Of a stretch of 14,452 nucleotides of DNA, positions 752 to 14,452 are shown piece by piece (position 1 is the stretch's first letter; each line of letters opens with the position of its first letter). This DNA comes from a virus (Duplodnaviria; Heunggongvirae; Uroviricota; Caudoviricetes), in the IMG/VR virus record IMGVR_UViG_2700989509_000022; one strand, written 5' to 3'. Position numbers and translations under genes: made by a program. The notes under the pieces were generated by a model, which saw only the letters and a list, made by a program, of their open reading frames with translations, did no database searches and had not been told where the DNA came from.

Positions 752-752
752 G

Positions 753-1031
753 TTACCTCCAGATGCGTTGCTGGAATGTGCGAGACGGACGCGGTGGGCG
801 TTCAGAGTAAGGAAGCCTGACGGAGATTATCCAGTGACGGTAGTCGAGACTAAGGGCTTTCTTAACCTCGTATCCGCGCCTGCGGTAACACTGAATTGTC
901 CATTCAGCCTGCTCTTCAGTACATGGAGGGTGTTGGAACCATTCAGACTTGAATGCGTGAGAATACCGCTCGTGCGTGCAGGCAAGAACGGGCGAATTAT
1001 CAGAATTGTAATATTTTACGTTGCGTGCCAT
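753..1031 (-). CDS. Hypothetical prophage protein (92 aa); may be the frameshifted N-terminal part of the downstream gene
   Basis: ORF in the track; sits between the Rem-like gene and the 1..751 gene on the same strand. C-terminal 20 residues are P/R/S-rich and look like out-of-frame sequence. Confidence 0.35.
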   Translation of the reverse strand: MARNVKYYNSDNSPVLACTHERYSHAFKSEWFQHPPCTEEQAEWTIQCYRRRGYEVKKALSLDYRHWIISVRLPYSERPPRPSRTFQQRIWR

Positions 1032-1097
1032 CGGTTTTCTCCGGTGGCACGGTGTTACTCAGCGGGAGTTCAGCCCCGCGCAAGATTGTAGATGAGT

Positions 1098-1349
1098 TTA
1101 TTCTTCTGCAAAAGCTGAAAAGCCTGCTTTTATTCCGATCTCTTTCAGTGCCTGTAATGAAGTGACAAACTCACCTTCGCGCAAGATAAATCCGTCTGTC
1201 ACTCGACCATCCACAAAATTAATTAACGCAGCCCCATTCTTTCGCAAACACATAATGCGGTAATGACTAACAAGATTTCCATTTTCAACGCACACAGCAT
1301 AGAGGCCATCTTCACAAAAAATTTTACGCAGTTCTTCGATGTTCATCAT
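1098..1349 (-). CDS. Rem-like small prophage protein (83 aa)
   Basis: 83-aa ORF immediately downstream of hok on the same strand, matching the rem-hokD neighbourhood and the 83-aa size of Rem in the K-12 Qin prophage (recalled, not searched). Confidence 0.55.
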   Translation of the reverse strand: MMNIEELRKIFCEDGLYAVCVENGNLVSHYRIMCLRKNGAALINFVDGRVTDGFILREGEFVTSLQALKEIGIKAGFSAFAEE

Positions 1350-1464
1350 CAGAATCCTTCCGGATAATTAGCTCTCCCCTTTAAGGGACCATCCCTCTTA
1401 TCCCTGCGCGCTACTTAAGTATTTTTGATTCTATTCCGGCGCCGTCCAGAACTTCAAACGCGTT

Positions 1465-1497
1465 GAAAATAAAAACAAAAACCCGCCGAAGCGGGTT
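1465..1497 (-). terminator. Rho-independent terminator on the minus strand, downstream of hok
   Basis: Plus-strand AACCCGC-CGAA-GCGGGTT hairpin at 1480..1497 preceded by an A-rich tract; on the minus strand this reads as a GC stem followed by TTTTGTTTTTATTTT. Confidence 0.7.
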
Positions 1498-1565
1498 AAG
1501 TGCGGGTGCGTTGAGGATGCCTGACACATCAGAGGTGGCGAGGGATTTCTCCCTCGCCGGGTCTC

Positions 1566-1721
1566 TTACTCCTCAGGTTCGTAAGCTGTGAAGACAGCGA
1601 CCTCCGTCTGGCCGGTTCGGATTCGTACCTCGCAGAGGTCTTTCCTCGTTACCAGTGTCGTCACTATGACGGTTAAACAGATGACGATCAGGGCGATTAA
1701 CATCGCCTTTTGCTGCTTCAT
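1566..1721 (-). CDS. hok: Hok/Gef-family type I toxin (51 aa)
   Basis: MKQQKAMLIALIVICLTVIVTTLVTRKDLCEVRIRTGQTEVAVFTAYEPEE matches the Hok/Gef membrane toxin pattern, closest to HokD/RelF as I recall it. ATG at 1721 with AAGGAG 9 nt upstream. An in-frame upstream ATG at 1778 may reflect the mok frame. Confidence 0.8.
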   Translation of the reverse strand: MKQQKAMLIALIVICLTVIVTTLVTRKDLCEVRIRTGQTEVAVFTAYEPEE

Positions 1722-2033
1722 AGCCTGCTTCTCCTTGCCTTCCGGCACGTAAGAGGCTAACCTACATGTGTCTAGCATAAATTGGCCTCAGATTAATGTT
1801 AAGCGTCTTGCAGGACGCGTAATGTTAACTGGGGCTTTTCTCTATCTGCCTTTGGTGTTCATGCCTGAGACAGATAGCCTCAAGCACCCGCAGCCATTCT
1901 ACTTAACTCCCGTTACCCCGCCAATATGAAATCAGTCAGAAAGGCGATCCATAAGAATAATGAATTCTGTAAGGCAATAGTCTCACTGTCTAACATATCT
2001 TACCTGATTACTTTACAATATAATAATTCATAG

Positions 2034-2678
2034 TTAAATCAAATGAATGTCATCATCCAATAATTCATTAGTAGTAATACTACCTTTTTTGAAAAAATTT
2101 TCATTTGCCTCAGCAATTTTTGCATCATTAACAAATTCATCACACATCCCAAAATAATGAAAAAATCTATTTAGTTTACATATTCCAATGGTATAGTGCC
2201 CTTTAGGTGTTTTGTCCACATAAACACGATTTGCTTTTATAATATGCATCTCATAATCATCTATATGTGGATGAACGATGCGAAATGATGCAGATGCAGT
2301 TGGATAGTTTTTGCGCCGCCCCCCATTTATTACGGGTTCAAATAACACTTCATTTTTACCTTTGAATTCATTGCAGTCAGGACATACTACACATAGATTC
2401 TTAGGTTCAAAAATAAAACATAGATATTGAGATTTTGGCACAATATGCTCTATAGGAGCAGCTTGTGCAGCTCTTACCCCAATAGGCTCATGACAATATA
2501 CACATTCTAGCTTTTGTTCTTCTCTGTAATGATTTCTAATTTCTGCACGGAGAACTTGCAAATCATCATCTCCCCAGTTGGTATGCTTAAAATCTGGAGA
2601 AGACAATTTTTTCTCAATAATATCTAATGACTCTGCGCTGAATCTAATTGGATTTTTAATTTTTGGCATAAATTTCAC
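2034..2678 (-). CDS. HNH endonuclease, PtuB-like (Septu-like nuclease component)
   Basis: CVYCHEP ... IEHIVPKS ... CVVCPDCNEFKGKN gives CxxC, a catalytic His and CxxCxxCN, i.e. an HNH ββα-metal motif. Visibly AT-rich. Start is GTG at 2678 or ATG at 2669, with AGGTG upstream. Overlaps the upstream ATPase by 14-23 nt. Confidence 0.7.
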   Translation of the reverse strand: MKFMPKIKNPIRFSAESLDIIEKKLSSPDFKHTNWGDDDLQVLRAEIRNHYREEQKLECVYCHEPIGVRAAQAAPIEHIVPKSQYLCFIFEPKNLCVVCPDCNEFKGKNEVLFEPVINGGRRKNYPTASASFRIVHPHIDDYEMHIIKANRVYVDKTPKGHYTIGICKLNRFFHYFGMCDEFVNDAKIAEANENFFKKGSITTNELLDDDIHLI

Positions 2679-4029
2679 ACACCTGAGATACGGAATTTAC
2701 GAGTTCATTAATAGGGTCATTACTATTAACGTTTTCAAGGAGAAGCTGGAGTTGTTTTAATTCACGCCAATTATCATCTGTTACTAACTTAGCAGTCTTA
2801 ACTTTTGAAAGTAAATTGAAAGCTAATCTGGCAATGTATTCATTCATAATGCCAGGGGCATCAAATAGTTCCGCAAGTTGATAGTCTGCAGACCGGTTGC
2901 TAAAGTATTTTGCTTTATAAAGATAACTTTTCGACAAAGATGTTATATAACAACCTTTATTCGGCAAATTGGATATTATTTGTGGTGAATGAGTTGCAAT
3001 TATGAATTGACAACCTGAGTAAGTTAAAAATGCTTTTGTTAACATAATGATAAACTCTTCCTGCCATCGAGGATGCAAGCTTATTTCCGGTTCATCAATT
3101 AGTATTATAGAACCATCAGTTATATGCCCTGCAATTCCAAGCAACATCACTAATAAACATTGTTCTCCCGAGCTCGCACGTTTAAGTGACATGGGACCAT
3201 AGCTTTTTTTTATGAGTCGCATATCCATCAATCTCATGAAGCCAGCGTTCATAAGTTTAAGAATTGATCTAGAAAAATAATTATTCGCATAAGTCGAGCC
3301 AACCAATGTTTCACCATTGGTAAAATCGACTGACAAGGTTACAGCCCTACGTTCAGGTTCAAATCGATTAATTTCAACCAGTGCTTCGTAAATATCATGA
3401 CGTGATTCGGAGTTTAACTTTAAGAGACTCTCAATATTCTTCCTGTCAATTTTTATATTGTATTTTAAATATAACTCCTTAACTTCCGTTAATATCTCAT
3501 CTGAATATACACCAATGAAGTTATAGTCAGGAGTGTCCGGTCCGTTGTAAGTTGGTTTAAATACAAACTCTATATGGGGCTCAAAATCAATAGAATGAAA
3601 AACATCGAGTAAATTTGCAGGATTTTCTGAATAAGCAAGTTTCTCTAGCCAACCTCTCGCTGCTGAAGATAAAAGGGATACGGCATTTGATACGCCGAAG
3701 GGGCCTTCTCCACGCATACCCACATAGCGATAATTATTTTCTTTCCTTTGGTGATTTAATGACCTACGCCCTGGAGGGAATTTATCGAATGGGCTGGTAG
3801 ATACGGCAATTAACTTTGGTGTTATTTCTCTGTCAAATAATGGATTAAAAGTTTTCAAGAAATGAACATCTTGAATACAGTCTTTAGCAATCTGAGATAA
3901 CAATCTGCTTTTTCCAACGCCATTTTTACCTACAATTACTGTAAAAATATTCGCATTATCAGAAACATCACCTTCTACAGCAAGTTTTAAGGTTCGACTA
4001 TCATGATGGGTATAATATAGTCTTTTCAT
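2656..4029 (-). CDS. ABC/AAA_21-type ATPase, PtuA-like (Septu-like ATPase component)
   Basis: Walker A VGKNGVGKS, signature-like ASSGEQ, Walker B IILIDEPEISLHP and H-loop IIATHSPQI in a 457-aa ORF. AT-rich, and the stop overlaps the start of the HNH gene. Confidence 0.75.
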   Translation of the reverse strand: MKRLYYTHHDSRTLKLAVEGDVSDNANIFTVIVGKNGVGKSRLLSQIAKDCIQDVHFLKTFNPLFDREITPKLIAVSTSPFDKFPPGRRSLNHQRKENNYRYVGMRGEGPFGVSNAVSLLSSAARGWLEKLAYSENPANLLDVFHSIDFEPHIEFVFKPTYNGPDTPDYNFIGVYSDEILTEVKELYLKYNIKIDRKNIESLLKLNSESRHDIYEALVEINRFEPERRAVTLSVDFTNGETLVGSTYANNYFSRSILKLMNAGFMRLMDMRLIKKSYGPMSLKRASSGEQCLLVMLLGIAGHITDGSIILIDEPEISLHPRWQEEFIIMLTKAFLTYSGCQFIIATHSPQIISNLPNKGCYITSLSKSYLYKAKYFSNRSADYQLAELFDAPGIMNEYIARLAFNLLSKVKTAKLVTDDNWRELKQLQLLLENVNSNDPINELVNSVSQVCEIYAKN

Positions 4030-4413
4030 TTTATTTTTCTCTCATTAAAATGCTCTTAATTAAGAATACCTATGCCTTTAACAGGCTCATAGTTATGATT
4101 TGTGATGCTTTCAAAAGGGTATGTAACTAAGTATTGAACTCTACACCTAAGATTCTAAGATTTTTAAATTAAAGTAGTTAAACATGCTTTTGATTGTACT
4201 CATTCTATGTCCATCGTTGCTGCATGTCTAGATATCGTGCCCCGCTATTGTTATGTAATGATATGATGGACGCCCTGTCTGAAGCAGCCAGTGAAATATT
4301 TTTACTGTCTGCGTTTTCTACAGGAGTAAATCACATGAGCACAATCAGAGTTGTTGGTATTGATATTGACCTGTGCCCAATTTTTTGAGACATATATTGG
4401 TACGCTCTTGGCA

Positions 4414-4435
4414 CAGGGCTGCTGCTGCAGCCCTG
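4414..4435. repeat. Perfect 9-bp inverted repeat with 4-nt loop (CAGGGCTGC-TGCT-GCAGCCCTG)
   Basis: Read directly; lies within 10 nt of the stop of the recombinase remnant on the minus strand. No U-tract, so not a canonical terminator. Confidence 0.6.
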
Positions 4436-4441
4436 ACAGCT

Positions 4442-5010
4442 TTAGACTTCGATCGATTCAGAGATCTCTAATGCATCATCAACTTCTATACCCAGATAAC
4501 GAACTGTGCTTTCCGTTTTCTTATGGCCCAACGGAAGTTGGATCACCCGGAGATTCTTAGTTTTCTTGCAGACAAGGCAAGGTTTTGTTCTTCTCATGGA
4601 ATGTGTGCTGTAAAGCGAATCTTCGAGACCAAGCTTTTCTCCCCCCTATGAAAGATTCGGTTATATTGCAGGATTGATATGTGTTGGTTAGTACCGACCC
4701 GAGATCGGAACAAGTAGTCTTTACTGCGTAAATTGCCAAGCTTTATCAATGCAGAAACAGCTTCTCTTGTCCCTTTGGTTATCTCAAATTGGATAGGACT
4801 GCCAGTTTTTCAGTTGCAGCACCGTAGCTCTGCTTGAAACCGAGCTAAATCACGCGTTTTACCTTCCAGTTCAAGCCGGATTTGGAGCCCCCAGATATGA
4901 GATATCTGAAGTGGTCTTTTTGGGCCTATGATACTGTCTTTGTTCCTCGGTGACGTATTCATACTCAAATCTCCTGCAATGTGGAAGATTTGAGTATGGT
5001 TGTCTCTCAA
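4442..5010 (-). pseudogene. Decayed tyrosine recombinase/integrase with at least two frameshifts
   Basis: Minus-strand translation ending at stop 4442..4444 gives KNLRVIQLPLGHKKTESTVRYLGIEVDDALEISESIEV, a typical tyrosine-recombinase C-terminus (compare Xer DLRVIQELLGH...Y). The preceding frame (4557..4739) carries RRFALQHTFHEKNKTLPCLQEN, the HxxR box region. No single long ORF remains; the 4810..5010 piece is in a third frame. Confidence 0.55.
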
Positions 5011-5067
5011 GAGCGAAATAGGTCAACTATAACTAGTTGTTGTGCATGTACGAATTCTGCCAATTAA

Positions 5068-5910
5068 TTATTGACAATAAAAAATTCTGGAATGTTCGAA
5101 ATCATCATATCGAATTATAATCTGGTTGACTGCATCTATTGTTGGCGCCATTTCAGTTATAATATCTCGATAACCTAAAGAGTTAAATACATTTACTAAG
5201 GCCTCACACCGCAGGCCAATAGCAATTACGACATTATAAATTGCCAGCCGTTTATTTTCTTGTTTAACTGCAAGAGTGAGTTCGATAGCAGTAGTTTTAT
5301 CGCTTTGGATTGCATTATATAGAGATACTATATTTGCCATATCATCAGAGAATGTATGTATTGAATCACAAAGAGGGACGTAATAGGCATGATAGTGTGT
5401 TTCCCAGCCAATTACTTCGAAAAGCTTTTTGGTTCCAGGATATTCAGGTGTATTTGGCCACAATCTATTAAACATATCAGTTAGCTCTTTTCCGATACGA
5501 ATCCTTTCATCTGCTGCTGGATTAGTCATTTCTTTGGATTTTAAACACTCCAGCCACCGTTTCCCATTACTATGAACTAATTTCTTACTACCCTTGAGTA
5601 ATGCTTGTGCATTTTTTCCATCATCAATTGCTATATAAAATTGATTGGCAGCCTGTTCCATTATAACTCTAGTTAATACTTCCGATGCTGAAAAGGCTCC
5701 GGTACTCAAAGAAAATATAGCCTGATTACTAAGTTCATTCAGTACATTAAAGTAATGTAAAACCATCAATTTTTGTTCCACCCCCTTTAGGTTATCTATT
5801 TTATTTTTATGCCTCTCAAATTTCGCATGGATATATTTATTTATCGCGGCTATTTTTTTTACATCTTCGTCGAAATCAAACGGGCAACGTCCAAACGATT
5901 TTTTCCTCAT
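5068..5910 (-). CDS. Hypothetical protein (280 aa), AT-rich cargo gene of unknown function
   Basis: ATG at 5910 with AGGAGG 5 nt upstream. Composition differs from the flanking prophage genes. I recognise no catalytic motif. Confidence 0.8.
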   Translation of the reverse strand: MRKKSFGRCPFDFDEDVKKIAAINKYIHAKFERHKNKIDNLKGVEQKLMVLHYFNVLNELSNQAIFSLSTGAFSASEVLTRVIMEQAANQFYIAIDDGKNAQALLKGSKKLVHSNGKRWLECLKSKEMTNPAADERIRIGKELTDMFNRLWPNTPEYPGTKKLFEVIGWETHYHAYYVPLCDSIHTFSDDMANIVSLYNAIQSDKTTAIELTLAVKQENKRLAIYNVVIAIGLRCEALVNVFNSLGYRDIITEMAPTIDAVNQIIIRYDDFEHSRIFYCQ

Positions 5911-6349
5911 ATATTCCTCCTGTTTTACAATCTCCCATAAGTTGGAAAATTATACACTGGAGATTACCTATAAATAACTGCGCACGATAGCTAGTCAGTG
6001 CAAGAAGTACAACCAAGTGAACGGTGCGTATCAGATACCTAGCTTAAAGTTCGCGATAGCCGTACTCTGTGTATTAGCTCAGACATTACCTGACAGGTTG
6101 AGTAGATAGAATCGAATCAAAGCTGACAGTCTGGTTTGGACTGTGGGGTCAACCGATGGATGCAACACACAGCGATCTACAGACATTACTAACATAGCGG
6201 TGTATTAATCATCGGGGAGCAGATCAGACTAACATTAAGCATTAGTAGTAATTTGCAGAGCATCCGTTTCTTACACAAAGCAAACCCCCACGCTAGCCCA
6301 ACCCTGTGCCACACAATGTCAATTCACATCTGAACTAATGCTCTTTAAT

Positions 6350-6624
6350 CTAGTAACGTCTAAAATATCGAACATTTCCCTGATAAAATGCCAGTATGCG
6401 CTGCATAACTTCACTCATTGTGGTGGTTTCTTCCGGCAGTTCTGCCTGCGCTGGCTGTTCCTGCTGAACGTTGTTATAAGCCACACGCCAGGTGTACGCG
6501 CTTTTATCAACAAAACCAGCCTTTTTCAGTTCCCATAGTTCGTTCAGCACTTCTTCACGCGCGCAGCAAGTTCTATGGATGTGGCTTTTCCCATTGCTTT
6601 CAGTGCGTCAAAAACAGTCTCCAT
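6350..6624 (-). pseudogene. Ren-like winged-helix protein gene, apparent single-base frameshift
   Basis: ATG at 6624 with GGGAGG 6 nt upstream gives [26 protein letters not shown] then TGA. The adjacent frame continues [26 protein letters not shown]...[18 protein letters not shown] with no ATG. The joined product resembles lambda Ren as I recall it, and the gene sits directly after the P-like gene as ren does in lambda. Confidence 0.5.
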
Positions 6625-6656
6625 AAATTTCCTCCCGGTAAAAATTACTTCTCAAC

Positions 6657-7322
6657 TCAGACAAGCCCAGCCGCTTTCCGGCGTTCATATTCCTGTTTCA
6701 GCAACTCAATTGGCGTTGGCCCCGACGGGCGTTTGGGTGCCGCCAGTTGTCGCCGGACTGGCGGAACACTCAGGCCGTTACTAACATGCTTTGCCCATTT
6801 CGTCAGCTGCCGTTCTGCAAGCCGTTTTAACTCCCCTTCGGTCATCTGCCGCTCAATCCCCTTTGAACGCATCTCGAGGCAAATGTGATACAGCACAGGC
6901 TGAGACCACGGGTATTTATCGCTCCCGTCGTATCGCCAGGACTCGTTGCGCCAGCGACGGTACTCCTCCATCACGGCATCCACCGTCAGACCGAATGGAT
7001 TGGCTCCGCTTTCAGAAATCAGCGCCACAAACTCAGCCAGGTCCGGAGGCCATGTTTCACCCGCCCGGCAGCGGTCCATGCACTGGCGGCAGACCTGTCG
7101 GATTTGCTGCTCAGTCATCGCACCAATCTGTGCAATCCAGAGCTTCGAAGGTGCGGCCCCGTTCTTCTGGGTCCAGCGGTTCGAATAAACCTCCCCCATG
7201 AGTTCCCACAGCTTCCAGGCCGTTTCCGTCGCTGATAAATCCGTTTTCACGTTCCCACTGCTCACGTGCTGCCCGAATTTCCTGAACTGCCCGTGATGCG
7301 GTGTCACCTGGTGCTGCTGCAT
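6657..7322 (-). CDS. Replication protein P-like (helicase loader)
   Basis: YPWSQPVLYHICLEMRSKGIERQMTEGELKRLAERQLTKWAKHV parallels the lambda P C-terminal region (recalled). ATG at 7322 with AGGGGG 6 nt upstream. The first ~210 nt overlap the O-like gene out of frame; alternative in-frame starts exist at 7199 and 7118. Confidence 0.7.
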   Translation of the reverse strand: MQQHQVTPHHGQFRKFGQHVSSGNVKTDLSATETAWKLWELMGEVYSNRWTQKNGAAPSKLWIAQIGAMTEQQIRQVCRQCMDRCRAGETWPPDLAEFVALISESGANPFGLTVDAVMEEYRRWRNESWRYDGSDKYPWSQPVLYHICLEMRSKGIERQMTEGELKRLAERQLTKWAKHVSNGLSVPPVRRQLAAPKRPSGPTPIELLKQEYERRKAAGLV

Positions 7323-8151
7323 GGTTTACCCCCTTGCTGACTGGTTTAACCTGCGCCCTGACGTGATTTACGTGACGGGCGAATTTCTGCTCCCACTGAA
7401 TCTGCGTAAACACTTTCCCCTCAGCAGCCCAGTAGTCCCGGAAGGCGGCAAGTTCAGCAGGTGTGAATTCTGTCTCCGGCAAAGCCATCCCCCACAACGC
7501 AGCCCGTCGTCGAAAATCCCGTGACGGATACCAGCTATCGGTCATCGGAAATTTTTCGATGGGTTCGCTCAGGCCATCCAGGAATACAGGAGGTGCAGCC
7601 TGTAACGACAAAACTTTCTGCTCACTGGTCGGAGCACTCTCGCGTGCGTTATGTGTGGGGTTTAGCTCTTTGGGTTCCTTTGGGTTCCGTGATCCGTTTT
7701 TGGGTGTCTTTGATGGAAAATTTGGGTGTCTTTGGTTATTTTCCATGCAGCTAAGAGTTCCGTTTTTGGGTCTGTTTTGTGCTGAAACATAACCATTTTC
7801 GGTACTGTTTTTATTAACAGCACCGATTTTACCCACCTTTAAAGACTCCCGTTTTTGGGTGTATTCAGGCTCGGCAACACTTTCTTCTACACCGATAAGT
7901 CGGTACACCACAATTTGCTTTGTTCTGCCTTTTCTCTCACCGGTATCAACAATTAACCCAATCTCCATCAGGTGTCGTAAGCTGTCCTGCACAGTCTTTT
8001 TGTTCAGTTCCGTTACTTCTGCCAGTGCAGATACAGACGGGTATGCACACAAATCGGCACCGCACATATCAGCAAGCCAGGTCAATACTGACTTACTGGA
8101 TGAACTGCCGGTTTTCACCTTTTTAGCCCATCGTAGTGCATCGATACTCAT
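7111..8151 (-). CDS. Replication initiator, O-like HTH N-terminus with DnaT-like C-terminal region
   Basis: N-terminus MSIDALRWAKK...SVSALAEVTELNKKTVQDSLRHLMEIGLI is a winged-helix/HTH. It sits between the YdaT-like and P-like genes as O does in lambdoid phages. ATG at 8151 with a G-rich RBS; the track extends the ORF to 8226. Confidence 0.65.
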   Translation of the reverse strand: MSIDALRWAKKVKTGSSSSKSVLTWLADMCGADLCAYPSVSALAEVTELNKKTVQDSLRHLMEIGLIVDTGERKGRTKQIVVYRLIGVEESVAEPEYTQKRESLKVGKIGAVNKNSTENGYVSAQNRPKNGTLSCMENNQRHPNFPSKTPKNGSRNPKEPKELNPTHNARESAPTSEQKVLSLQAAPPVFLDGLSEPIEKFPMTDSWYPSRDFRRRAALWGMALPETEFTPAELAAFRDYWAAEGKVFTQIQWEQKFARHVNHVRAQVKPVSKGVNHAAAPGDTASRAVQEIRAAREQWERENGFISDGNGLEAVGTHGGGLFEPLDPEERGRTFEALDCTDWCDD

Positions 8152-8674
8152 ACGACCCCCTGGCAGACATTTGTTTATCTGCAAAGTAATATTGATATTG
8201 CTGACGATACGCATGCTTGAAAGCAATAGCTTTTTCTATAAGCTCGTCAGTCTCACGTTCCACAACAGATGGATCCGCAAAAAGCAGCCCGGACTCCACC
8301 ACATCGCCATATTCTTTGTTTAATCCGGCGATCATGTACGTAATGCTTTTTCCATCACTGATCTCACGATACAGCCTGAAATCACTAATTCGGATAGCCT
8401 CCATAATTGCCGGAATCAGCGCCGTGAATTTTTTCCGCTTATCCCTGGTGTCGATAGCTTTCCAGCGTTCGAATATCTTCACCCGGTTAACGCACAGCGC
8501 CCGTTGATCAACCTCGCCATCATTAAACGTGACGCGTTGAACATCGATGTTCGGACGTTCTTTCAGAGCCCAGAATGCTTCCGTGATTAATATCGTCGCC
8601 TGCTCCTGTGTCATTCCTGGTCGGCATACCCAGGCATCCAGAGCCTCACAAACCTGTTCAGGGGTGATTTTCAT
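8123..8674 (-). CDS. YdaT-like (CII-position) prophage regulatory protein
   Basis: MKITPEQVCEALDAW... and KIFERWKAIDTRDKRKKFTALIPAIMEAI resemble Rac YdaT as I recall it. It occupies the position after the cro-like gene. Confidence 0.5.
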   Translation of the reverse strand: MKITPEQVCEALDAWVCRPGMTQEQATILITEAFWALKERPNIDVQRVTFNDGEVDQRALCVNRVKIFERWKAIDTRDKRKKFTALIPAIMEAIRISDFRLYREISDGKSITYMIAGLNKEYGDVVESGLLFADPSVVERETDELIEKAIAFKHAYRQQYQYYFADKQMSARGSYEYRCTTMG

Positions 8675-8885
8675 TGTTCAACCGCCCCGCCCGCTTTGCC
8701 TTACGATATTCGTCATAAACTTTGGGGTCGTACTGAAGTTCCCCGCCGGATGCCTCTTGCAGGCGCATCGCGCGACCTTCAGGAACCAGTTCCCCCCATT
8801 GAGAAACAGCAGATGGATCAACACCAGCAGCTTTCGCTACTTTGGCTTTCGTCCCATAAAAATTAATTACGTCTGATTTAAACAT
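8658..8885 (-). CDS. DicC/Cro-like HTH regulator (75 aa)
   Basis: MFKSDVINFYGTKAKVAKAAGVDPSAVSQWGELVPEGRAMRLQEASGGELQYDPKVYDEYRK, divergent from the repressor gene. ATG at 8885 with GGAGG 5 nt upstream. Confidence 0.75.
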   Translation of the reverse strand: MFKSDVINFYGTKAKVAKAAGVDPSAVSQWGELVPEGRAMRLQEASGGELQYDPKVYDEYRKAKRAGRLNNENHP

Positions 8886-8962
8886 CACCCCTCCAAAGTT
8901 GAGTTTTCTCAATAGTAATCACTCAAGGAATCTCAAGTCAAGGGTTATTAAGATATCTAAAT
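8886..8962. promoter_or_regulatory. OR-like divergent promoter/operator region between the cro-like and repressor genes
   Basis: Minus-strand TTGACT (8936..8941), 18-nt spacer, TACTAT (8912..8917). Inverted repeat TTGAGTTTTCTCAA at 8899..8912 abuts the -10. The repressor ATG at 8963 has no Shine-Dalgarno, so it may be leaderless like lambda cI from PRM (inference). Confidence 0.55.
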
Positions 8963-9370
8963 ATGAACGAGAAAACTTTAGGTCAACGAATTAGAGAAAG
9001 ACGCAAACAGGTTGGTTTAAGTCAAAACGATTTAAGCAAAGCTGCTGGCGTATCTGGCTCATCAATTTCACTATGGGAAAGCGACCATACAGCCCCGCGC
9101 GGGCAAAATTTGCATCGCCTGGCTGAGGTATTGCAATGTTCACCAACTTGGATACTGTTTGGTGACGAGGATAAAACACCAGATCCACCAGTTGCACTCA
9201 ACAGCGCCTTAGACTTATCGGAAGATGAGTTGGAGATGTTGCGATTGTATCGCGCACTTCCAAAATCAGAGCAGCAAGCACAAATCAGCGAACTCCGTGC
9301 CCGCGTTGAGAATTTTAATCGCCTATTCACCGAGCTACTAGAAGCTCGCAAACGTAACAAACATCAATAA
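8963..9370 (+). CDS. DicA-like XRE-family HTH repressor (135 aa)
   Basis: QRIRERRKQVGLSQNDLSKAAGVSGSSISLWE is an XRE HTH; LQCSPTWILFGDEDK and the C-terminal RARVENFNRLFTELLEARKR match Qin DicA as I recall it. Confidence 0.8.
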   Translation: MNEKTLGQRIRERRKQVGLSQNDLSKAAGVSGSSISLWESDHTAPRGQNLHRLAEVLQCSPTWILFGDEDKTPDPPVALNSALDLSEDELEMLRLYRALPKSEQQAQISELRARVENFNRLFTELLEARKRNKHQ

Positions 9371-9423
9371 CCCCCCTTCACAAATTTTAAAGTCTTACAT
9401 TTCAATGTATTGGCTTTATTTTG

Positions 9424-9484
9424 CATTAAATATTGAGTTTTCTCATCAAAAGCACTTGACCAATATTCATGAGAAAACTAAATT
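9424..9484 (+). promoter_or_regulatory. PL-like promoter with two copies of the operator motif
   Basis: TTGACC (9456..9461), 17-nt spacer, TAAATT (9479..9484). TTGAGTTTTCTCA at 9433..9445 and its reverse complement at 9469..9481 flank or overlap the promoter. Confidence 0.5.
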
Positions 9485-9561
9485 ACGATCCATCAAGACA
9501 CCGCACGGTGTTCTCAGCAAACAGTTCCGCTACCCCGGCGTTAAGGGGAAATGAGGTCAAC

Positions 9562-9714
9562 ATGGATACTATCGATCTTGGCAACAACGAATCTCTGGTG
9601 TACGGCGTGTTCCCCAACCAGGGCGGTACGTTCACCGCGATGACATATACCAAAAGCAAAACGTTTAAAACCGAATCTGGCGCGCGTTGCTGGTTAGCCA
9701 GAAACACTGACTGA
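9562..9714 (+). CDS. Small prophage protein, YdfA-like (50 aa)
   Basis: ATG at 9562 with GAGG 5 nt upstream. It is the first gene after the repressor, as ydfA is after dicA in Qin. Similarity is recalled, not searched. Confidence 0.5.
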   Translation: MDTIDLGNNESLVYGVFPNQGGTFTAMTYTKSKTFKTESGARCWLARNTD

Positions 9715-9750
9715 TGAGGCTGACGATGGAATTTAAAGATTTACCGTCTG

Positions 9751-10668
9751 ATGTACAGAAAACAGCAGCTCATACATTGCATTCTGTGCTGCGAGAAATC
9801 GGGAAAGATATTGCAAGCGAGCCAGCAACAGGAACCGGAAAAAGTCTGCACCGCCTGCGGTCAGAGCGGTGGCGGCAACTGCCCTGATTGTGGCGCGGTG
9901 ATGGGTGACACAACATACCAGGAAATATTCGATGAAGAGAATCAGCCTGAAGTTCAGGAAAATGATCCGGAGGAAATGGAAGGTACTGCACATCAGCACA
10001 AGGAGAACACTGGCGGCAATCAGCATCATGCCAGCGATAGTGAAACTGGCGAGGCGTCAGATCCCTTAATTAAGGCGAACAGTCATCATAATCTCACATC
10101 CACCAGCAGAGCGGGGATTCATCTGATGATCGACCTTGAAACCATGGGAAAAAATCCCGATGCCCCGATTATCTCAATAGGCGCAATATTTTTCGATCCG
10201 CAAACCGGAGATATGGGACCAGAATTTAGCAAGACCATCGATCTGGATACTGCTGGCGGAGTCATTGATCGTGACGTCATTAAATGGTGGCTGAAGCAAT
10301 CACGTGAAGCGCAGTCTGCCATTATGACCGATGAAATCCCGTTAGATGATGCACTACTGCAATTGCGGGAATTTATCGACGAAAACTCCGGTGAATTTTT
10401 TGTTCAGGTCTGGGGTAATGGGGCCAACTTCGACAACGTGATTTTACGCCGTTCATACGAACGACAGGGTATCCCCTGCCCGTGGCGCTACAGCAACGAT
10501 CGCGATGTACGCACAATCGTTGAGCTGGGGAAAGCCATAGACTTCGATGCCAGAACTGCTATCCCATTCGAAGGTGAGCACCATAATGCACTTGATGACG
10601 CTCGTTACCAGGCAAAATACGTTTCAGCTATCTGGCAAAAACTGATCCCGAGTCAGGCTGATTTTTAA
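9751..10668 (+). CDS. DEDDh 3'-5' exonuclease-domain protein with Cys-rich/acidic N-terminal region; start uncertain
   Basis: Exo motifs MIDLET (D-x-E), WGNGANFD and HHNALDDA (H-x4-D). Possible starts: 9751 (no SD; CxxCC...CxxC...CxxC zinc-ribbon-like), 10126 (MIDLETMG with GGGGA upstream), or a frameshifted fusion with the 54-codon ORF at 9726..9887, which has a good RBS. Confidence 0.7.
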   Translation: MYRKQQLIHCILCCEKSGKILQASQQQEPEKVCTACGQSGGGNCPDCGAVMGDTTYQEIFDEENQPEVQENDPEEMEGTAHQHKENTGGNQHHASDSETGEASDPLIKANSHHNLTSTSRAGIHLMIDLETMGKNPDAPIISIGAIFFDPQTGDMGPEFSKTIDLDTAGGVIDRDVIKWWLKQSREAQSAIMTDEIPLDDALLQLREFIDENSGEFFVQVWGNGANFDNVILRRSYERQGIPCPWRYSNDRDVRTIVELGKAIDFDARTAIPFEGEHHNALDDARYQAKYVSAIWQKLIPSQADF

Positions 10669-10683
10669 TGTTCAACCCTAATT

Positions 10684-10709
10684 GCCGCTAACCGTATATA
10701 GTTAGCGGC
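10684..10709. repeat. Perfect 9-bp inverted repeat with 8-nt AT-rich loop (GCCGCTAAC-CGTATATA-GTTAGCGGC)
   Basis: Read directly; lies between the exonuclease stop and the xis start. No U-tract follows. Confidence 0.6.
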
Positions 10710-10720
10710 GGTTATGAGAT

Positions 10721-10930
10721 ATGGCTATGAGCAGCTTATTTTTAACCGAAGATGAATTGCTAATATTAACAGGCTGCAAATATGCAAGCCACCAGCGAAA
10801 ATGGTTAATGGAAAACGGGCTTCCGTTCTATACCAATCGTAGTGGCAAACCGATTGTCAGCCGGGATCTATTTACCTGCAATAAAACTTTACCACCACGC
10901 GAGGTAGAGCCGAATTTTGGTGCAATCTGA
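10721..10930 (+). CDS. xis: Excisionase-like protein (69 aa, DUF4224-like)
   Basis: Small ORF immediately upstream of int; its TGA overlaps the int ATG (TGATG). LTEDELLILTGCKYASHQRKWLMENGLPFY resembles lambdoid Xis-position proteins (recalled). Confidence 0.65.
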   Translation: MAMSSLFLTEDELLILTGCKYASHQRKWLMENGLPFYTNRSGKPIVSRDLFTCNKTLPPREVEPNFGAI

Positions 10931-11955
10931 TGGGAAGACGAAGGAAAAATCCTGAACACGAAAAATTACCTCCAAATGTATACCCAAATAAATATAGTTA
11001 TGTATGGAAACCAACATCCAGAGAATCTGTAACACTAACCGCCATCAAGGATGGTTTAGCTGCTTTATGGAAAAAGTATGAGGAAACTGTAAATAATCAC
11101 GATCGTGCAATGACATTCGGTCGCTTGTGGGAAAAATTCCTCGCCAGCGCCTATTACAGTGACCTTAGTCCAAGAACACAAAAAGATTATCTGCAACATC
11201 AAAAAAAGTTGCTTGCCGTATTCGGTAAGGTACCAGCGGATGCCATAAAACCAGAACACATCCGTCGATACATGGACAAAAGAGGGGAGCAGAGTAAAAC
11301 GCAAGCCAACCATGAAAAAAGCAGTATGTCCCGCGTTTACAGTTGGGGGTATGAGCGAGGTTACGTGAAGGGTAACCCATGTGCAGGTGTAAGTAAATTC
11401 AAGGCCAAAAACCGCGAACGATATGTAACCGACAAAGAATACCAGGCAGTATTAAGCGTTGCACCTCTTCCTGTTTTTATCGCAATGGAAATTGCCTATC
11501 TGTGTGCAGCGAGGGTTTCCGATGTGTTATCACTGAAATGGGAGCAGATTGGAAACGACGGGATCTTTATCCAGCAAGGGAAAACAGGGAAAAAACAGAT
11601 AAAAGCATGGAGTCCACGATTACAGGCGGCGATCGAAAAAGCAAAACAGTTACCAGCATCCGTCTATGTAATCAGCAATCAATATGGCAACCGATATATG
11701 TACAAAGGCTTTAACGAAATGTGGGTAGAAGCAAGAAATCGCGCAGGCAAAATTTCAGGTATTTTAACCGACTTCACCTTTCATGATCTGAAGGCGAAAG
11801 GAATTTCAGACTATGAAGGAAGCAGCCGGGATAAGCAACTTTTCTCTGGTCACAAAACCGAGGGGCAAGTGCTAATCTATGACAGGAAGGTTAAAGTTTC
11901 ACCAACACTTGATGTCCCGTTACCTGAAAATATTCCAAGAAAATATTCCAAGTAA
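10930..11955 (+). CDS. int: Tyrosine-recombinase phage integrase
   Basis: 341-aa ORF with C-terminal catalytic region (...FHDLKAKGISDY...SGHKTEGQVLIYDRK...), ending 52 bp from the 3' end of tRNA-Ser. Confidence 0.9.
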   Translation: MGRRRKNPEHEKLPPNVYPNKYSYVWKPTSRESVTLTAIKDGLAALWKKYEETVNNHDRAMTFGRLWEKFLASAYYSDLSPRTQKDYLQHQKKLLAVFGKVPADAIKPEHIRRYMDKRGEQSKTQANHEKSSMSRVYSWGYERGYVKGNPCAGVSKFKAKNRERYVTDKEYQAVLSVAPLPVFIAMEIAYLCAARVSDVLSLKWEQIGNDGIFIQQGKTGKKQIKAWSPRLQAAIEKAKQLPASVYVISNQYGNRYMYKGFNEMWVEARNRAGKISGILTDFTFHDLKAKGISDYEGSSRDKQLFSGHKTEGQVLIYDRKVKVSPTLDVPLPENIPRKYSK

Positions 11956-12007
11956 TTCCAAGTGTGATTTTTGTCACTGACTTAATGATGTGTAAGTGAT
12001 TGAATTT

Positions 12008-12097
12008 TGGCGGAGAGAGGGGGATTTGAACCCCCGGTGGAGTTGCCCCCACTCCGGTTTTCGAGACCGGTCCGTTCAGCCGCTCCGGCATCTCTCC
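12008..12097 (-). tRNA. serU: tRNA-Ser (anticodon CGA)
   Basis: Reverse complement reads GGAGAGATGCCGGAGCGGCTGAACGGACCGGTCTCGAAAACC...GGTTCAAATCCCCCTCTCTCCGCCA: type II tRNA with long variable arm, anticodon loop CUCGAAA, encoded CCA. The serU-mtfA-asnT context fits E. coli. Confidence 0.93.
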
Positions 12098-12190
12098 GTT
12101 CAGATGGTTGCCATGATGCCAGGAAATTTGGCATTTTAACAGTCCCTGTCCGTGCAATTTTGTTCAAGTGACGAGTTTGCGAGCAAAACG

Positions 12191-12988
12191 ATGATTAAGT
12201 GGCCCTGGAAAGTACAAGAATCAGCACATCAAACTGCCCTTCCCTGGCAGGAAGCACTATCGATCCCCCTTTTAACGGGTCTGACGGAACAGGAACAAAG
12301 CAAATTAGTCACTCTTGCCGAACGTTTTTTACAGCAAAAGCGGCTTGTTCCTTTACAGGGCTTTGAACTGGATTCATTAAGAAGCTGCCGGATAGCACTT
12401 CTATTTTGCCTACCCGTTCTGGAGTTAGGACTGGAATGGCTGGATGGTTTTCATGAAGTCTTAATTTATCCTGCGCCATTTGTGGTCGATGATGAATGGG
12501 AAGACGATATCGGTCTGGTGCATAACCAACGTATTGTTCAGTCAGGTCAGAGCTGGCAGCAAGGGCCTATCGTTTTGAACTGGTTGGATATACAAGATTC
12601 TTTTGATGCTTCTGGTTTTAACCTGATTATTCATGAAGTCGCTCATAAGCTGGACACCCGTAACGGCGATCGCGCCAGCGGAGTTCCCTTTATTCCGTTG
12701 CGTGAGGTTGCTGGCTGGGAACACGATCTTCATGCTGCAATGAACAACATTCAGGAAGAAATCGAATTGGTTGGCGAGAATGCGGCGAGCATTGATGCTT
12801 ATGCTGCCAGTGATCCTGCTGAATGTTTTGCCGTACTTTCTGAATATTTCTTTAGCGCCCCAGAACTTTTTGCTCCTCGTTTCCCTTCATTGTGGCAACG
12901 TTTCTGCCAATTTTATCAACAAGATCCTTTGCAGAGACTGCATCGCACTAATGATACAGACTCGTTTTCGGCGACGAATGTTCATTAA
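12191..12988 (+). CDS. mtfA: MtfA (Mlc titration factor A), zinc-dependent peptidase
   Basis: [22 protein letters not shown]... with HEVAHKLD (HEXXH) motif, 265 aa, located between tRNA-Ser and tRNA-Asn as in E. coli. The track ORF starts 13 codons upstream at 12152. Confidence 0.9.
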
Positions 12989-13041
12989 TTAACAACTTTG
13001 CAGATTAATTAACCAATTGAAATGACTTATGAAATTTAGTG

Positions 13042-13070
13042 TTGACAGACAAGGTACCGCTAAGTAATAT
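13042..13070 (+). promoter_or_regulatory. tRNA-Asn promoter (sigma70 consensus-like)
   Basis: TTGACA (13042..13047), 17-nt spacer, TAATAT (13065..13070), followed by GC-rich discriminator GCGCCCC; the tRNA starts at 13089. Confidence 0.7.
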
Positions 13071-13088
13071 GCGCCCCGTTCACACGAT

Positions 13089-13164
13089 TCCTCTGTAGTT
13101 CAGTCGGTAGAACGGCGGACTGTTAATCCGTATGTCACTGGTTCGAGTCCAGTCAGAGGAGCCA
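13089..13164 (+). tRNA. asnT: tRNA-Asn (anticodon GUU)
   Basis: TCCTCTGTAGTTCAGTCGGTAGAACGGCGGACTGTTAATCCGTATGTCACTGGTTCGAGTCCAGTCAGAGGAGCCA, 76 nt, anticodon loop CUGUUAA. Locus identity is inferred from the mtfA neighbour. Confidence 0.93.
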
Positions 13165-13253
13165 AATTCTAAAAATTCGCTTTTTTAGCGCAATGTCACT
13201 GACCTTAGTTGAACATTGTTTTTTAACGGATAGCGGGTTTTTAACATCTTAAG

Positions 13254-13288
13254 CGCCCTCGACCTTTATGGTTGAGGGCGTTTTGCTA
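13254..13288 (+). terminator. Rho-independent terminator downstream of tRNA-Asn
   Basis: CGCCCTCGACC-TTTAT-GGTTGAGGGCG stem-loop followed by TTTTGCT. Confidence 0.65.
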
Positions 13289-13535
13289 TGAACGCCATCA
13301 CCATTTTCCCCTCGATTATAAAACTTGAGTTATTCAGTAGTCTCCCCTCTTGCAACTCACCCCCAAAACTGCCTAACGAAAAGTTATTAATTTTCAATCA
13401 TATTGCTATCAGGATTTACATTTTTTCGCTGTGCTAGAAAGGGGTAAGCGTACAGCCTGAACCGTCTGGTCAGAATCTGACGAATTAGACAAAGTGGTGT
13501 CCACCAAATAAGTAGTGGGAACCAAAGTATCAGAT

Positions 13536-13916
13536 ATGCAGAAAAATGTGACTCCCGGCAGGCGAAAAGGCTGCCCTAATTATCCTCCCGAATTTAAACA
13601 GCAGCTCGTTGCTGCCTCCTGTGAACCCGGGATATCCATCTCAAAACTTGCTCTTGAAAATGGCATTAACGCCAATCTGTTGTTCAAATGGCGACAACAA
13701 TGGCGCGAGGGAAAGCTGCTATTACCTTCTTCAGAGAGCCCCCAGCTACTTCCTGTGACTCTCGATGCAGCTGCCGAACAGCCAGAATCGCTCGCAGAGG
13801 ACCCGGAAACCCTCAGTATCAGCTGTGAGGTAACGTTCCGGCACGGGACGCTCCGCTTCAATGGCAATGTCAGCGAAAAGCTCCTGACTCTGCTGATACA
13901 GGAACTGAAGCGATGA
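13536..13916 (+). CDS. tnpA: IS66-family accessory protein TnpA (orfA)
   Basis: MQKNVTPGRRKGCPNYPPEFKQQLVAAS... is typical of IS66 orfA (recalled). The track ORF begins at GTG 13515; ATG at 13536 preferred. Confidence 0.8.
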   Translation: MQKNVTPGRRKGCPNYPPEFKQQLVAASCEPGISISKLALENGINANLLFKWRQQWREGKLLLPSSESPQLLPVTLDAAAEQPESLAEDPETLSISCEVTFRHGTLRFNGNVSEKLLTLLIQELKR

Positions 13917-14260
13917 TCCCGTTACCTTCCGGGACCAAAATTTGGCTGGTTGCCGGTATCACCGATATGAGAAATGGCTTCAACGGCCTGGCTGCGAAAG
14001 TACAGACGGCGCTGAAAGACGATCCCATGTCCGGCCATGTTTTCATTTTCCGGGGCCGCAGCGGCAGTCAGGTTAAACTGCTGTGGTCCACCGGTGACGG
14101 GCTGTGCCTCCTGACCAAACGGCTGGAGCGTGGGCGCTTCGCCTGGCCGTCAGCCCGTGATGGCAAAGTGTTCCTTACGCAGGCGCAGCTGGCGATGCTG
14201 CTGGAAGGTATCGACTGGCGACAGCCTAAGCGGCTGCTGACCTCCCTGACCATGCTGTAA
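13913..14260 (+). CDS. tnpB: IS66-family Orf2 (TnpB)
   Basis: MIPLPSGTKIWLVAGITDMRNGFNGLAAKVQ...; start overlaps the tnpA stop (ATGA). Confidence 0.85.
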   Translation: MIPLPSGTKIWLVAGITDMRNGFNGLAAKVQTALKDDPMSGHVFIFRGRSGSQVKLLWSTGDGLCLLTKRLERGRFAWPSARDGKVFLTQAQLAMLLEGIDWRQPKRLLTSLTML

Positions 14261-14309
14261 ATCTCTTTATCCTGGTTGTCACAGAATAAGCCCGGTAAAA
14301 TACGGGCTT

Positions 14310-14452
14310 ATGAACGACATCTCTTCTGACGACATCTTCCTGCTGAAACAGCGCCTGGCCGAACAGGAAGCGCTGATCCACGCCCTGCAGGAAAAGCTGA
14401 GCAACCGGGAGCGCGAAATAGACCATCTGCAGGCGCAGCTGGATAAACTCCG
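14310..14452 (+). CDS. tnpC: IS66-family transposase TnpC, N-terminal fragment (truncated by window end)
   Basis: ORF open to the window end: MNDISSDDIFLLKQRLAEQEALIHALQEKLSNREREIDHLQAQLDKL, the coiled-coil N-terminus typical of IS66 transposases. Confidence 0.75.
   Translation, partial: MNDISSDDIFLLKQRLAEQEALIHALQEKLSNREREIDHLQAQLDKL

Follow-up and report, generated by a model that had tools for sequence, protein, structure and literature searches.

A dicBF-type early-left operon of a defective Qin-like prophage, very probably shortened by one internal deletion

We analyzed positions 9371-10930 of a 14,452-nucleotide stretch of viral DNA (IMG/VR record IMGVR_UViG_2700989509_000022, Caudoviricetes), which is referred to below as the window. 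This interval is very probably the dicBF-type early-left operon of a defective Qin-like lambdoid prophage of E. coli, in the form left by one internal deletion of about 3.0 kb. Such an event represents ordinary prophage decay. The features of the interval and its surroundings are collected in Table 1.

Table 1. Sequence features of the shortened operon and the adjoining prophage regions (window coordinates)
Feature	Position	Strand	Evidence or remark
rem, antirepressor	1098..1349	-	PGAP 'protein Rem' at corresponding place in L005 and L003
Candidate operator copy TTGAGTTTTCTCA	8899..8911	+	in the divergent region between cro and the repressor, immediately before cro
DicA-like immunity repressor, 135 aa	8963..9370	+	Pfam HTH_3, E=1e-16
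Two inverted candidate operator copies	9432..9483	9433-9445 on +, 9470-9482 on -	bracket the early-left -35 element
dicBp-like early-left promoter (TTGACC, 17 nt spacer, TAAATT)	9456..9484	+	consensus scan
Conserved operon leader including ydfA ribosome-binding site	9490..9561	+	four-way alignment
ydfA homologue, DUF1391, 50 aa, intact	9562..9714	+	Pfam DUF1391, E=3.7e-26
Chimeric 53-aa ORF, good SD	9726..9887	+	in a different frame, overlapping the beginning of the 305-aa ORF
305-aa exonuclease ORF	9751..10668	+	residues 124-295 = Rv2179c-like domain
Spurious first 25 codons, MYRKQQLIHCILCCEKSGKILQASQ	9751..9825	+	alternative-frame reading of the 121-aa gene 5' end
Deletion junction, 4-bp microhomology GCAA	9825..9828	.	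three-way alignment, base by base; common to both parental sequences
Exonuclease 3' remnant, codons 545-825, pseudogene without own start	9826..10668	+	PGAP, alignment, PHROG
CxxC-x7-CxxC zinc-knuckle-like motif in acidic linker	9847..9891	+	native interior of the full-length protein
Complete Rv2179c-like / DexA-like DEDDh 3'-5' exonuclease domain	10120..10635	+	Pfam PF16473
Excisionase (DUF4224)	10721..10930	+	Pfam DUF4224, E=2e-15; phrog_1266 excisionase
Tyrosine integrase	10930..11980	+	Pfam Phage_integrase; ORF open over 10930-11955
tRNA-Ser(CGA), attachment site at prophage end, adjoining mtfA	12008..12097	-	ARAGORN, Rfam, annotation context

Between the repressor and xis lie a DUF1391/YdfA gene and an ORF whose exonuclease domain is of the DEDDh (Rv2179c-like) type. 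Pfam matches confirm these two genes, which had been listed in an earlier note made from the sequence alone; that list overlooked the overlapping 53-aa ORF, although its presence had been sensed as a possible frameshift. The repressor is identical to WP_001003379.1 in the related genomes L001, L003, and L005, and shares 56% identity with K-12 DicA over 128 aa. PGAP labels the ydfA homologue in L001 as a DUF1391 family protein, and reports the integrase gene of L001, L002, and L005 as frameshifted near its 3' end. No ORF of the interval matched N, kil/cIII, bet/exo, or RecT (ORF list and Pfam), in agreement with the earlier statement that neither N nor kil/cIII nor a recombination module is visible there. 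Rfam at the gathering threshold detected no RNA gene in 9371-10930, and a terminator scan of the interval gave candidates on the minus strand only, no more than expected from shuffled sequences.

Of the hallmarks of a dicBF-type operon, a DicA-type repressor, a dicBp-like promoter, and a leader before ydfA are present. The dicBp promoter lies upstream of ydfA (PMC10448788), and the position of the window promoter corresponds to it. Its CTTGAC -35 element is invariant among the window, K-12 Qin, L002, and L003, and the four-way alignment shows the leader to be nearly invariant relative to the K-12 dicA-ydfA spacer. The inverted candidate operator copies lie in an inverted repeat with 18-nt arms of 89% complementarity. 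Three copies of the 13-mer occur in the window at no more than two mismatches, versus a chance expectation of about 0.7; with three copies also reached in 7 of 200 shuffles, the operators have weak statistical support. The candidate operator sequence is immunity-specific and differs in K-12 and L002, in contrast to the conserved -35 element and leader. The copies of TTGAGTTTTCTCA are putative operators of the DicA-like repressor.

The deletion junction was resolved by comparison with two related prophages. Sequence of the L003 type ends at 9828 and sequence of the L002 type begins at 9825. In BLAST alignments, window positions 551-9828 correspond to L003 positions 1-9269 (99.3% identity) and positions 9825-10716 to L003 positions 12305-13195; relative to L003, 3,039 bp are absent from the window. 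Codon 34 of a 121-aa gene is thereby joined out of frame to codon 545 of an exonuclease gene. The start of the 121-aa gene (L003 CDS 9167-9532) corresponds to window position 9726, which lies in a different frame (9726 mod 3 = 0) from the start of the 305-aa ORF (9751 mod 3 = 1). Codons 1-34 of the 53-aa ORF are the 5' end of the 121-aa gene, and its last 19 codons and stop are exonuclease sequence read out of frame. The 121-aa gene represents an alternative module (phrog_33007, PHROG function unknown); it was also considered as a variant of ydfB or ydfC, with which it had no evident similarity when the unaligned sequences were inspected side by side. Within the segment that L003 has and the window lacks, Rfam matches DicF at positions 9979-10030 (72.5 bits), and Pfam identifies DicB and DUF1482. 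The window contains no dicF sRNA gene according to Rfam, and neither the ORF list nor Pfam gave a dicB or ydfD ORF in 9371-10930.

The possible frameshift suspected across 9726-9890 has turned out to be a frame-related event of another sort, the fusion of two genes rather than a single-base shift. Two overlapping 5' ORFs in different frames do resemble a frameshift when viewed without comparison, and one could ascribe them to an error of sequencing or assembly that interrupts a gene which is intact in reality. We regard such an error as having practically no chance of being the explanation. The sequences flanking 9825-9828 come from two genes, which relatives carry at a distance of 3,039 bp from each other, and on this ground a single-base frameshift was rejected. 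Moreover, the identical junction (9800-9855) recurs in L001 and L006-L012, eight separate assemblies from different projects with a complete genome among them, and is therefore not a sequencing error. A neighbouring IS66 is present in some of the junction-bearing assemblies and absent in others.

We propose that a deletion within the prophage, which is integrated at tRNA-Ser(CGA) next to mtfA, joined the two genes through GCAA. Lost in this event would be the remainder of the 121-aa gene together with a small reverse ORF, the DicF sRNA gene, dicB, ydfD/DUF1482, and the first 544 exonuclease codons. The frame of the 121-aa gene now reads on to the stop at 9887 and encodes a 53-aa chimeric peptide, while the exonuclease frame happens to be open upstream to ATG 9751, giving an illusory 305-aa ORF.

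The composition of the 305-aa ORF was established by comparison with its full-length homologues. In the RefSeq (PGAP) annotation of L001, a pseudogene marked 'incomplete; missing N-terminus' has exactly the coordinates that correspond to window 9826-10668. Within the ORF, residues 26-305 equal residues 546-825 of the L002 exonuclease with one substitution (99.6%), the full-length phrog_2082 model is matched at positions 540-823 of 823 only, and database homologues span only about 90-92% of the 305-aa query. When aligned with full-length homologues, the ORF lacks the native start (MSKVFICAA...) and residues 1-545; likewise, the YdfE-like N-terminal and central RecE-like regions that define phrog_2082 membership are absent from it. 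Its residues 1-25, which start with MYRKQQLIHCILCC and contain three of its Cys, have no counterpart in any full-length homologue aligned. The exonuclease 5' end is thus abnormal, as had been noticed before, but the 'unusual Cys-rich acidic N-terminus' is actually composed of these 25 alternative-frame residues and a conserved internal linker of an 824-825-aa protein. The CxxC-x7-CxxC motif of this linker is invariant in four full-length homologues and aligns with RecE residues 518-531, CNACGQTGGDNCPDCG.

In-frame start candidates occur at 9751, 9811, 9898/9901, 9976, and 10126. ATG 9751 is essentially devoid of an SD sequence (duplex energy of -0.9 kcal/mol), and SD-like sequences are found at ATG 9976 (-9.5 kcal/mol) and ATG 10126 (-7.3 kcal/mol). 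The earlier remark that the start is ambiguous is therefore well founded, and the reason is that the real start was deleted. The earlier note had also named, as evidence against its own reading, a conserved full-length homologue with a defined start and a known role. Such homologues with a defined start were found; as to their role, the label 'exonuclease' was found and no demonstrated function.

The PF16473 match of the DEDDh domain scores 226.3 bits versus a cut-off of 27, and covers model positions 2-177 of 177 (ORF residues 124-295). The predicted catalytic residues are all present: D128 and E130 (MIDLET), D228 (ANFDN), and H278...D283 (HNALDD). A role of the exonuclease in defence was also considered, for which PADLOC gave only a weak generic DEDDh match (E=2e-5), and our literature search found no paper joining Rv2179c-like domains with prophages. 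The domain of the full-length homologue matches PDB 8kel, a 227-aa 'Exodeoxyribonuclease' (E=3e-5) that we take to be phage T4 DexA, and the MIDLET motif of the window aligns with FIIDFET of 8kel.

The completeness of this domain, with all DEDDh motif residues kept, lends itself to another reading, that the 305-aa ORF or an internal-start product is a working stand-alone DEDDh exonuclease, domesticated under DicA/Rem control in an operon whose shortening was selected. Stand-alone proteins of such a fold exist (8kel), the SD-like sequences at 9976 and 10126 could serve the internal starts, and nine or more genomes have inherited the arrangement. We nevertheless find domestication very improbable. 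The annotated start at 9751 is without an SD sequence and lies inside the coding sequence of another gene, and in the intact genes examined (L002-L005) the domain is accompanied, at a minimum, by the central RecE-like region. The shortened form is absent from phage records and, among the matches listed, from all other complete genomes. The copies within the lineage differ by 0-1 base in 1,560; therefore, their persistence reflects recent clonal inheritance and is not evidence of selection. An equally slim chance is given to the proposal that the deletion was selected, having removed DicF, DicB, and YdfD and left a stand-alone exonuclease of about 180-255 aa made from an internal start under DicA/Rem. 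The remnant is probably non-functional, as suggested by the lost start and the PGAP annotation. It may still yield some product, given the undamaged DEDDh domain and the two internal ATGs with SD-like sequences.

The distribution of the junction is narrow. When 5,426 complete E. coli genomes were searched, the whole query 8900-11000 was found in CFSAN004176 only, and all 24 other genome matches listed begin at window position 9825, under an annotated 'exonuclease'. None of the 50,697 phage records spans the junction, and all 12 matches listed begin at 9825. A natural short isoform of the exonuclease was also considered, and was rejected since the junction is spanned by no phage record and by one same-lineage genome in these two collections. 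Many database entries of 280-530 aa exist; most of them bear the label 'partial' and begin at an internal position of the protein. Shorter families in phage records include one of 530 aa and a domain-only one of 264 aa that may be incomplete.

As to the origin of the junction, no exact undeleted parent was found among the genomes examined, and as a consequence a deletion within one prophage and illegitimate recombination between two are indistinguishable by their product. The left-side sequence type is found in L003, whose attachment site is a different one, adjoining yccA, and the two same-site relatives examined, L002 and L005, carry ydfB-ydfC in place of the 121-aa gene. This pattern would suit microhomology recombination between two Qin-like prophages in one genome, which would have the same end product and consequences. 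The left flank up to 9828 is of the L003 type (99.3%) and the right flank of the L002 type (99.4%), the L003 exonuclease being only 91% identical to the latter; in addition, the region has several matching places in E. coli genomes, with a median of 2 per genome and a maximum of 15. On the other hand, L005, which shares the attachment site, matches window positions 1-9693 at 99.7% identity, leaving only 9694-9828 as 'foreign', and such module mosaicism occurs among intact relatives (L002 versus L003 versus L004). An inter-prophage event would also usually rearrange or delete the intervening chromosome, of which there is no sign within the window, and the flanks (tRNA-Ser, mtfA, tRNA-Asn) are in standard order. 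We thus consider recombination between prophages an unlikely, if not negligible, source of the junction.

In the operon as shortened by an internal deletion, the DicA-like repressor would bind the TTGAGTTTTCTCA candidate operators around the dicBp-like promoter. In Qin, Rem relieves DicA repression of dicBp (PMC10448788). Derepression, for example by the Rem homologue of the window, would be expected to produce a transcript covering ydfA, the 53-aa ORF, the exonuclease remnant, xis, and int, which would no longer yield the toxic DicF, DicB, and YdfD. The DEDDh domain would at best be weakly translated, either from the internal starts at 9976 and 10126 or by reinitiation at ATG 9901 after the stop at 9887. 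Selection for the loss of these three toxic functions is a plausible explanation of why the deletion has persisted.

The related prophages share the order repressor, ydfA, ydfB-ydfC or the 121-aa gene, dicF, dicB, ydfD, 824-825-aa exonuclease, xis, and int. This standard long operon was found in L002, L003, L004, L005, and ON470580 (a record that includes host flank); the exonuclease gene is about 2.47 kb long and is split into two CDSs in ON470580. The interval thus bears a secondary 3.0-kb deletion within a standard dicBF-type operon, and the earlier designation of a minimal early-left operon does not hold for its native state. The absence of N and bet/exo is not special either, as the intact relatives and K-12 Qin are without them too: no N or cIII/kil/gam/bet/exo gene is annotated in the same interval of L002, L003, and L005, and the described composition of the dicBF operon includes none (PMC10448788). 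Accordingly, the region should not be taken for a new minimal lambdoid regulatory architecture, and an exonuclease with a novel Cys-rich N-terminal domain should not be catalogued. It provides a base-resolved example of cryptic-prophage decay, in which toxic dicF/dicB/ydfD cargo was lost and a chimeric pseudo-ORF was gained that gene callers report as a 305-aa protein.

Among the closest known systems is the dicBF operon of K-12 Qin (dicA, dicBp, ydfA, ydfB, ydfC, dicF, dicB, ydfD, ydfE, intQ), which has the gene order of the intact relatives and whose regulation and toxicity have been described (PMC10448788). Both elements have a 135-aa DicA-type repressor, a divergent cro/dicC-like gene, a ydfA homologue preceded by the conserved -35 element and leader, xis/int at the end, and a Rem antirepressor elsewhere in the prophage. 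Unlike Qin, the window is without dicF, dicB, ydfD, and genes at the ydfB/ydfC position; it differs further in immunity specificity (operator sequence) and in attachment site (tRNA-Ser/mtfA versus the rspB side). Over the first 258 aa of the full-length exonuclease, the K-12 ydfE pseudogene has 96% identity to it. Qin kept the 5' part of this gene, cut by IS2, whereas the window element kept the 3' part.

The full-length exonuclease family of Qin-type lambdoid prophages and phages (phrog_2082) is named 'exodeoxyribonuclease VIII' in some records. The window ORF has in common with it the entire DEDDh domain and the acidic linker with CxxC-x7-CxxC, but is without the first 544 residues and the native start, and has an unrelated 25-residue out-of-frame leader instead. 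With stand-alone Rv2179c-like/DexA-like exonucleases (PF16473; 8kel), the window domain has in common the DxE, D, and HxxxD motifs and the end-to-end Pfam match; in contrast to them, it is what remains, at the C-terminal end, of a large protein with several domains, and has no native start. RecE (exonuclease VIII) of Rac occupies the same operon place, between kil-type genes and xis/int. Homology connects RecE residues 278-591 with residues 264-627 of the full-length exonuclease (38% overall, and much higher over about 455-591), including the Cys motif and acidic stretch. The BLASTP alignment with K-12 RecE stops at RecE residue 591, before the C-terminal nuclease domain. The 5'-3' nuclease domain of RecE was not found in the full-length protein, which bears the DEDDh 3'-5' domain in its place, and a recT partner following the exonuclease and preceding xis is present neither in the window nor in L002, L003, and L005. 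The widespread 825-aa Qin-type 'exonuclease VIII' thus combines a RecE central region and zinc-knuckle linker with a DEDDh 3'-5' C-terminus, a combination that explains its misleading annotation.

Based on ORF listing, Pfam and tRNA scans, the window represents the immunity and early region of a lambdoid prophage. The genes that the earlier note placed in 9371-10930 were correctly listed, and neither ORF listing nor Pfam gave homologues of N, kil, cIII, bet, exo or recT in this interval. Its description as a minimal operon, however, has to be abandoned, since intact relatives hold dicF, dicB and ydfD between ydfA and a full-length exonuclease gene, and these were deleted in the window.

Features of the window and of the lost segment
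Feature	Position	Strand	Details
rem	1098-1349		
hokD/sok	1566-1889	-	type I toxin-antitoxin locus
PtuA ATPase	within 2034-4029	-	457 aa; PADLOC E=1e-165
PtuB HNH nuclease	within 2034-4029	-	214 aa; PADLOC E=1e-83
Degraded integrase	~4440-4960		PGAP pseudogene; adjoins Septu-type system
DUF5677 protein	5068-5910		adjoins Septu-type system
DUF1627 remnant	~6420-6625	-	frameshifted, truncated
Replication P	6657-7322	leftward	
DnaT-like O protein	7111-8226	leftward	
YdaT-family protein	8123-8674	leftward	at cII position
P22-Cro-like gene	8658-8912	leftward	
HTH repressor	8963-9370	rightward	135 aa
DUF1391/YdfA protein	9562-9714	rightward	50 aa
305-aa ORF	9751-10668	rightward	Rv2179c-like DEDDh exonuclease domain match, residues 124-295
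DUF4224 excisionase	10721-10930	rightward	
Tyrosine integrase	10930-11955	rightward	
tRNA-Ser(CGA)	12008-12097		adjoins prophage element, with mtfA
IS66-family element	13443-14452	+	TnpA-like ORF 13515-13916; TnpB 13913-14260; then start of transposase
121-aa gene	lost		codons 35-121 (L003 as reference, here and below)
66-aa reverse ORF	lost		
dicF	lost		Rfam 72.5 bits in L003
dicB, DUF1482/ydfD	lost		Pfam
Exonuclease	lost		codons 1-544

Among 5,426 complete E. coli genomes searched with 8900-11000, 4,808 matched, and the entire stretch was present in one only (CFSAN004176). The other 24 matches listed all begin at 9825, under a gene annotated 'exonuclease'. PGAP annotates 9826-10668 in CFSAN004176 as a pseudogene ('3'-5' exoribonuclease domain-containing protein, incomplete, missing N-terminus'). 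The intact relatives (L002 and L005, at the same mtfA site as the window; L003 and L004, at other sites; and ON470580, a phage-collection record including host flank) carry a longer operon, in which the repressor and ydfA are followed by ydfB-ydfC or, alternatively, by a hypothetical gene of 121 aa, and then by a small reverse ORF, dicF, dicB, ydfD/DUF1482, an exonuclease of 824-825 aa (split into two CDSs in ON470580), xis and int. The gene order is the same in K-12 Qin, where the ydfE pseudogene shares 96% identity with residues 1-258 of the 825-aa exonuclease; the window repressor is 56% identical to K-12 DicA and equal in length.

By BLAST, window 551-9828 corresponds to L003 1-9269 (99.3%) and 9825-10716 to L003 12305-13195 (91%), while 9825-13443 corresponds to L002 9001-12618 (99.4%). 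In a three-way alignment the left parental sequence ends at 9828 and the right begins at 9825, so that the crossover lies within a GCAA common to both parents, with an imperfect GAGCCAG match just upstream. The loss is 3,039 bp relative to L003 and about 2.94 kb net relative to the same-site L005; no Rfam match to dicF was found in the window. Such a junction could reflect an internal deletion of one prophage or, less probably, recombination between two resident prophages.

The fusion is out of frame, because the 121-aa gene (start at 9726) is in frame 3 and the exonuclease in frame 1. The former frame runs to a TGA at 9885-9887, which makes a chimeric ORF of 53 aa, and the exonuclease frame is open upstream of the junction to ATG 9751 by chance. 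In the protein alignment, residues 26-305 of the 305-aa ORF match L002 residues 546-825 at all positions but one, a substitution, and residues 1-25 (MYRKQQLIHCILCCEKSGKILQASQ) have no counterpart in homologues, which is why database homologues span only ~90-92% of the query. No Shine-Dalgarno sequence precedes ATG 9751. The start is ambiguous because the true one (MSKVFICAA...) was lost in the deletion.

The earlier note also suggested checking 9726-9890 for a frameshift. Gene calls give the exact 305-aa product on at least 10 contigs, which belong to different assemblies. CFSAN004176 and the further assemblies L006-L012 carry the 56-bp junction string unchanged, and over the whole 1,560-bp interval they show 0-1 base difference from the window. 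Since the junction is identical across separate assemblies, the deletion is real and is inherited within one E. coli lineage. Because the lineage copies are near-identical, nothing about selection follows from its persistence. No phage record spans the junction. The IS66-family element, inserted downstream of tRNA-Asn (between it and yeeJ), is common to some of these genomes (L007-L009) and absent from others (CFSAN004176 and L006); the window therefore comes from a sub-branch of the deletion lineage. In CFSAN004176, rem is truncated by an ISEc23 (IS66-like) insertion (L001 1-1304 versus window 1-1238), whereas the DUF968, hypothetical and rem segment is uninterrupted in the window, as in L005. 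The two thus have the deletion in common and differ in IS content.

The Cys-rich, acidic N-terminus regarded as unusual in the earlier note belongs to the interior of a large conserved protein, where it is an ordinary linker. Of its seven cysteines, three (C10, C13, C14) lie in the leader that is a spurious alternative-frame reading, and four make up a CxxC-x7-CxxC motif (9847-9891), invariant in all four full-length homologues, and this motif and the following acidic stretch are homologous to Rac RecE ~510-591. The wider alignment pairs RecE 278-591 with residues 264-627 of the full-length Qin-type exonuclease, the homology ending just ahead of the RecE C-terminal part, which is the 5'-3' nuclease domain. 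The Qin-type protein has instead a DEDDh domain, whose nearest solved relative is 8kel, a 227-aa exodeoxyribonuclease that we take to be phage T4 DexA. The 825-aa protein is a domain-swapped relative of RecE with the central region and zinc-knuckle linker (RecE 278-591) in common, a kinship that accounts for 'exodeoxyribonuclease VIII' annotations; it has no recT partner. The 825-aa 'exonuclease / exonuclease VIII' is widespread (L002 7367-9844; L014 4787-7387). The otherwise intact L003 copy (10674-13148; strain Z1322HEC0003) reads MIDLKTMG versus MIDLETMG in all others at residue ~649; Lys replaces Glu of the DxE metal-binding motif, and this copy may be catalytically dead.

The repressor-ydfA spacer contains a promoter-like site, TTGACC-17-TAAATT (9456-9484). 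The -35 element of this site and the downstream leader (9490-9561) show conservation with the K-12 dicA-ydfA spacer, and the flanks are immunity-specific. The 13-mer TTGAGTTTTCTCA occurs once just upstream of cro (8899) and in two inverted copies around the -35 element (9433 and 9470), a placement that seems to fit the published DicA operators at dicCp and dicBp (PMC10448788). According to the same work, the dicBp transcript covers ydfABC, dicF, dicB and ydfDE, DicA is not cleavable via RecA, Rem is an antirepressor of DicA, and strong dicBp induction is toxic owing to DicB and DicF (PMC10448788). Derepression in the window would yield a transcript of ydfA, the 53-aa ORF, the exonuclease remnant, xis and int, presumably free of toxic products. 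A protein with the exonuclease domain might arise by reinitiation at ATG 9901, downstream of the 9887 stop, or from the SD-preceded ATGs 9976 and 10126.

Several other features were observed. The hokD/sok locus (sok Rfam score 113.5 bits; hokD annotated in relatives) lies close beside rem. The two-gene Septu-type anti-phage system within the prophage has the appearance of a defence islet that was inserted with the replication region on one side and the late-regulation region on the other. The DUF1627 remnant downstream of replication P, a PGAP pseudogene in L001, L003 and L005, is another sign of prophage degradation. In L001, L002 and L005, all the mtfA-site relatives examined, PGAP reports the integrase (10930-11980, +) as frameshifted; because the 341-aa ORF is, in our reading, open through the apparent catalytic-Tyr region, the frameshift lies at the extreme C-terminus.

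The 305-aa ORF holds a complete PF16473 family domain and only the C-terminal third of the phrog_2082 protein family. Its pseudogene status is already flagged in current RefSeq annotation, and it is a case of ordinary prophage decay. Among known systems, a RecET module is rejected, both the RecE nuclease domain and recT being missing. The lambda-type pL operon does not match the window either, and N and bet/exo are absent from the intact relatives as well. The repressor, promoter and ydfA are those of a Qin/dicBF-type operon, whereas dicF, dicB and ydfD are lacking because they were deleted. Judged by sequence, the element is best described as a decayed early-left operon of the Qin/dicBF type and would work like one.
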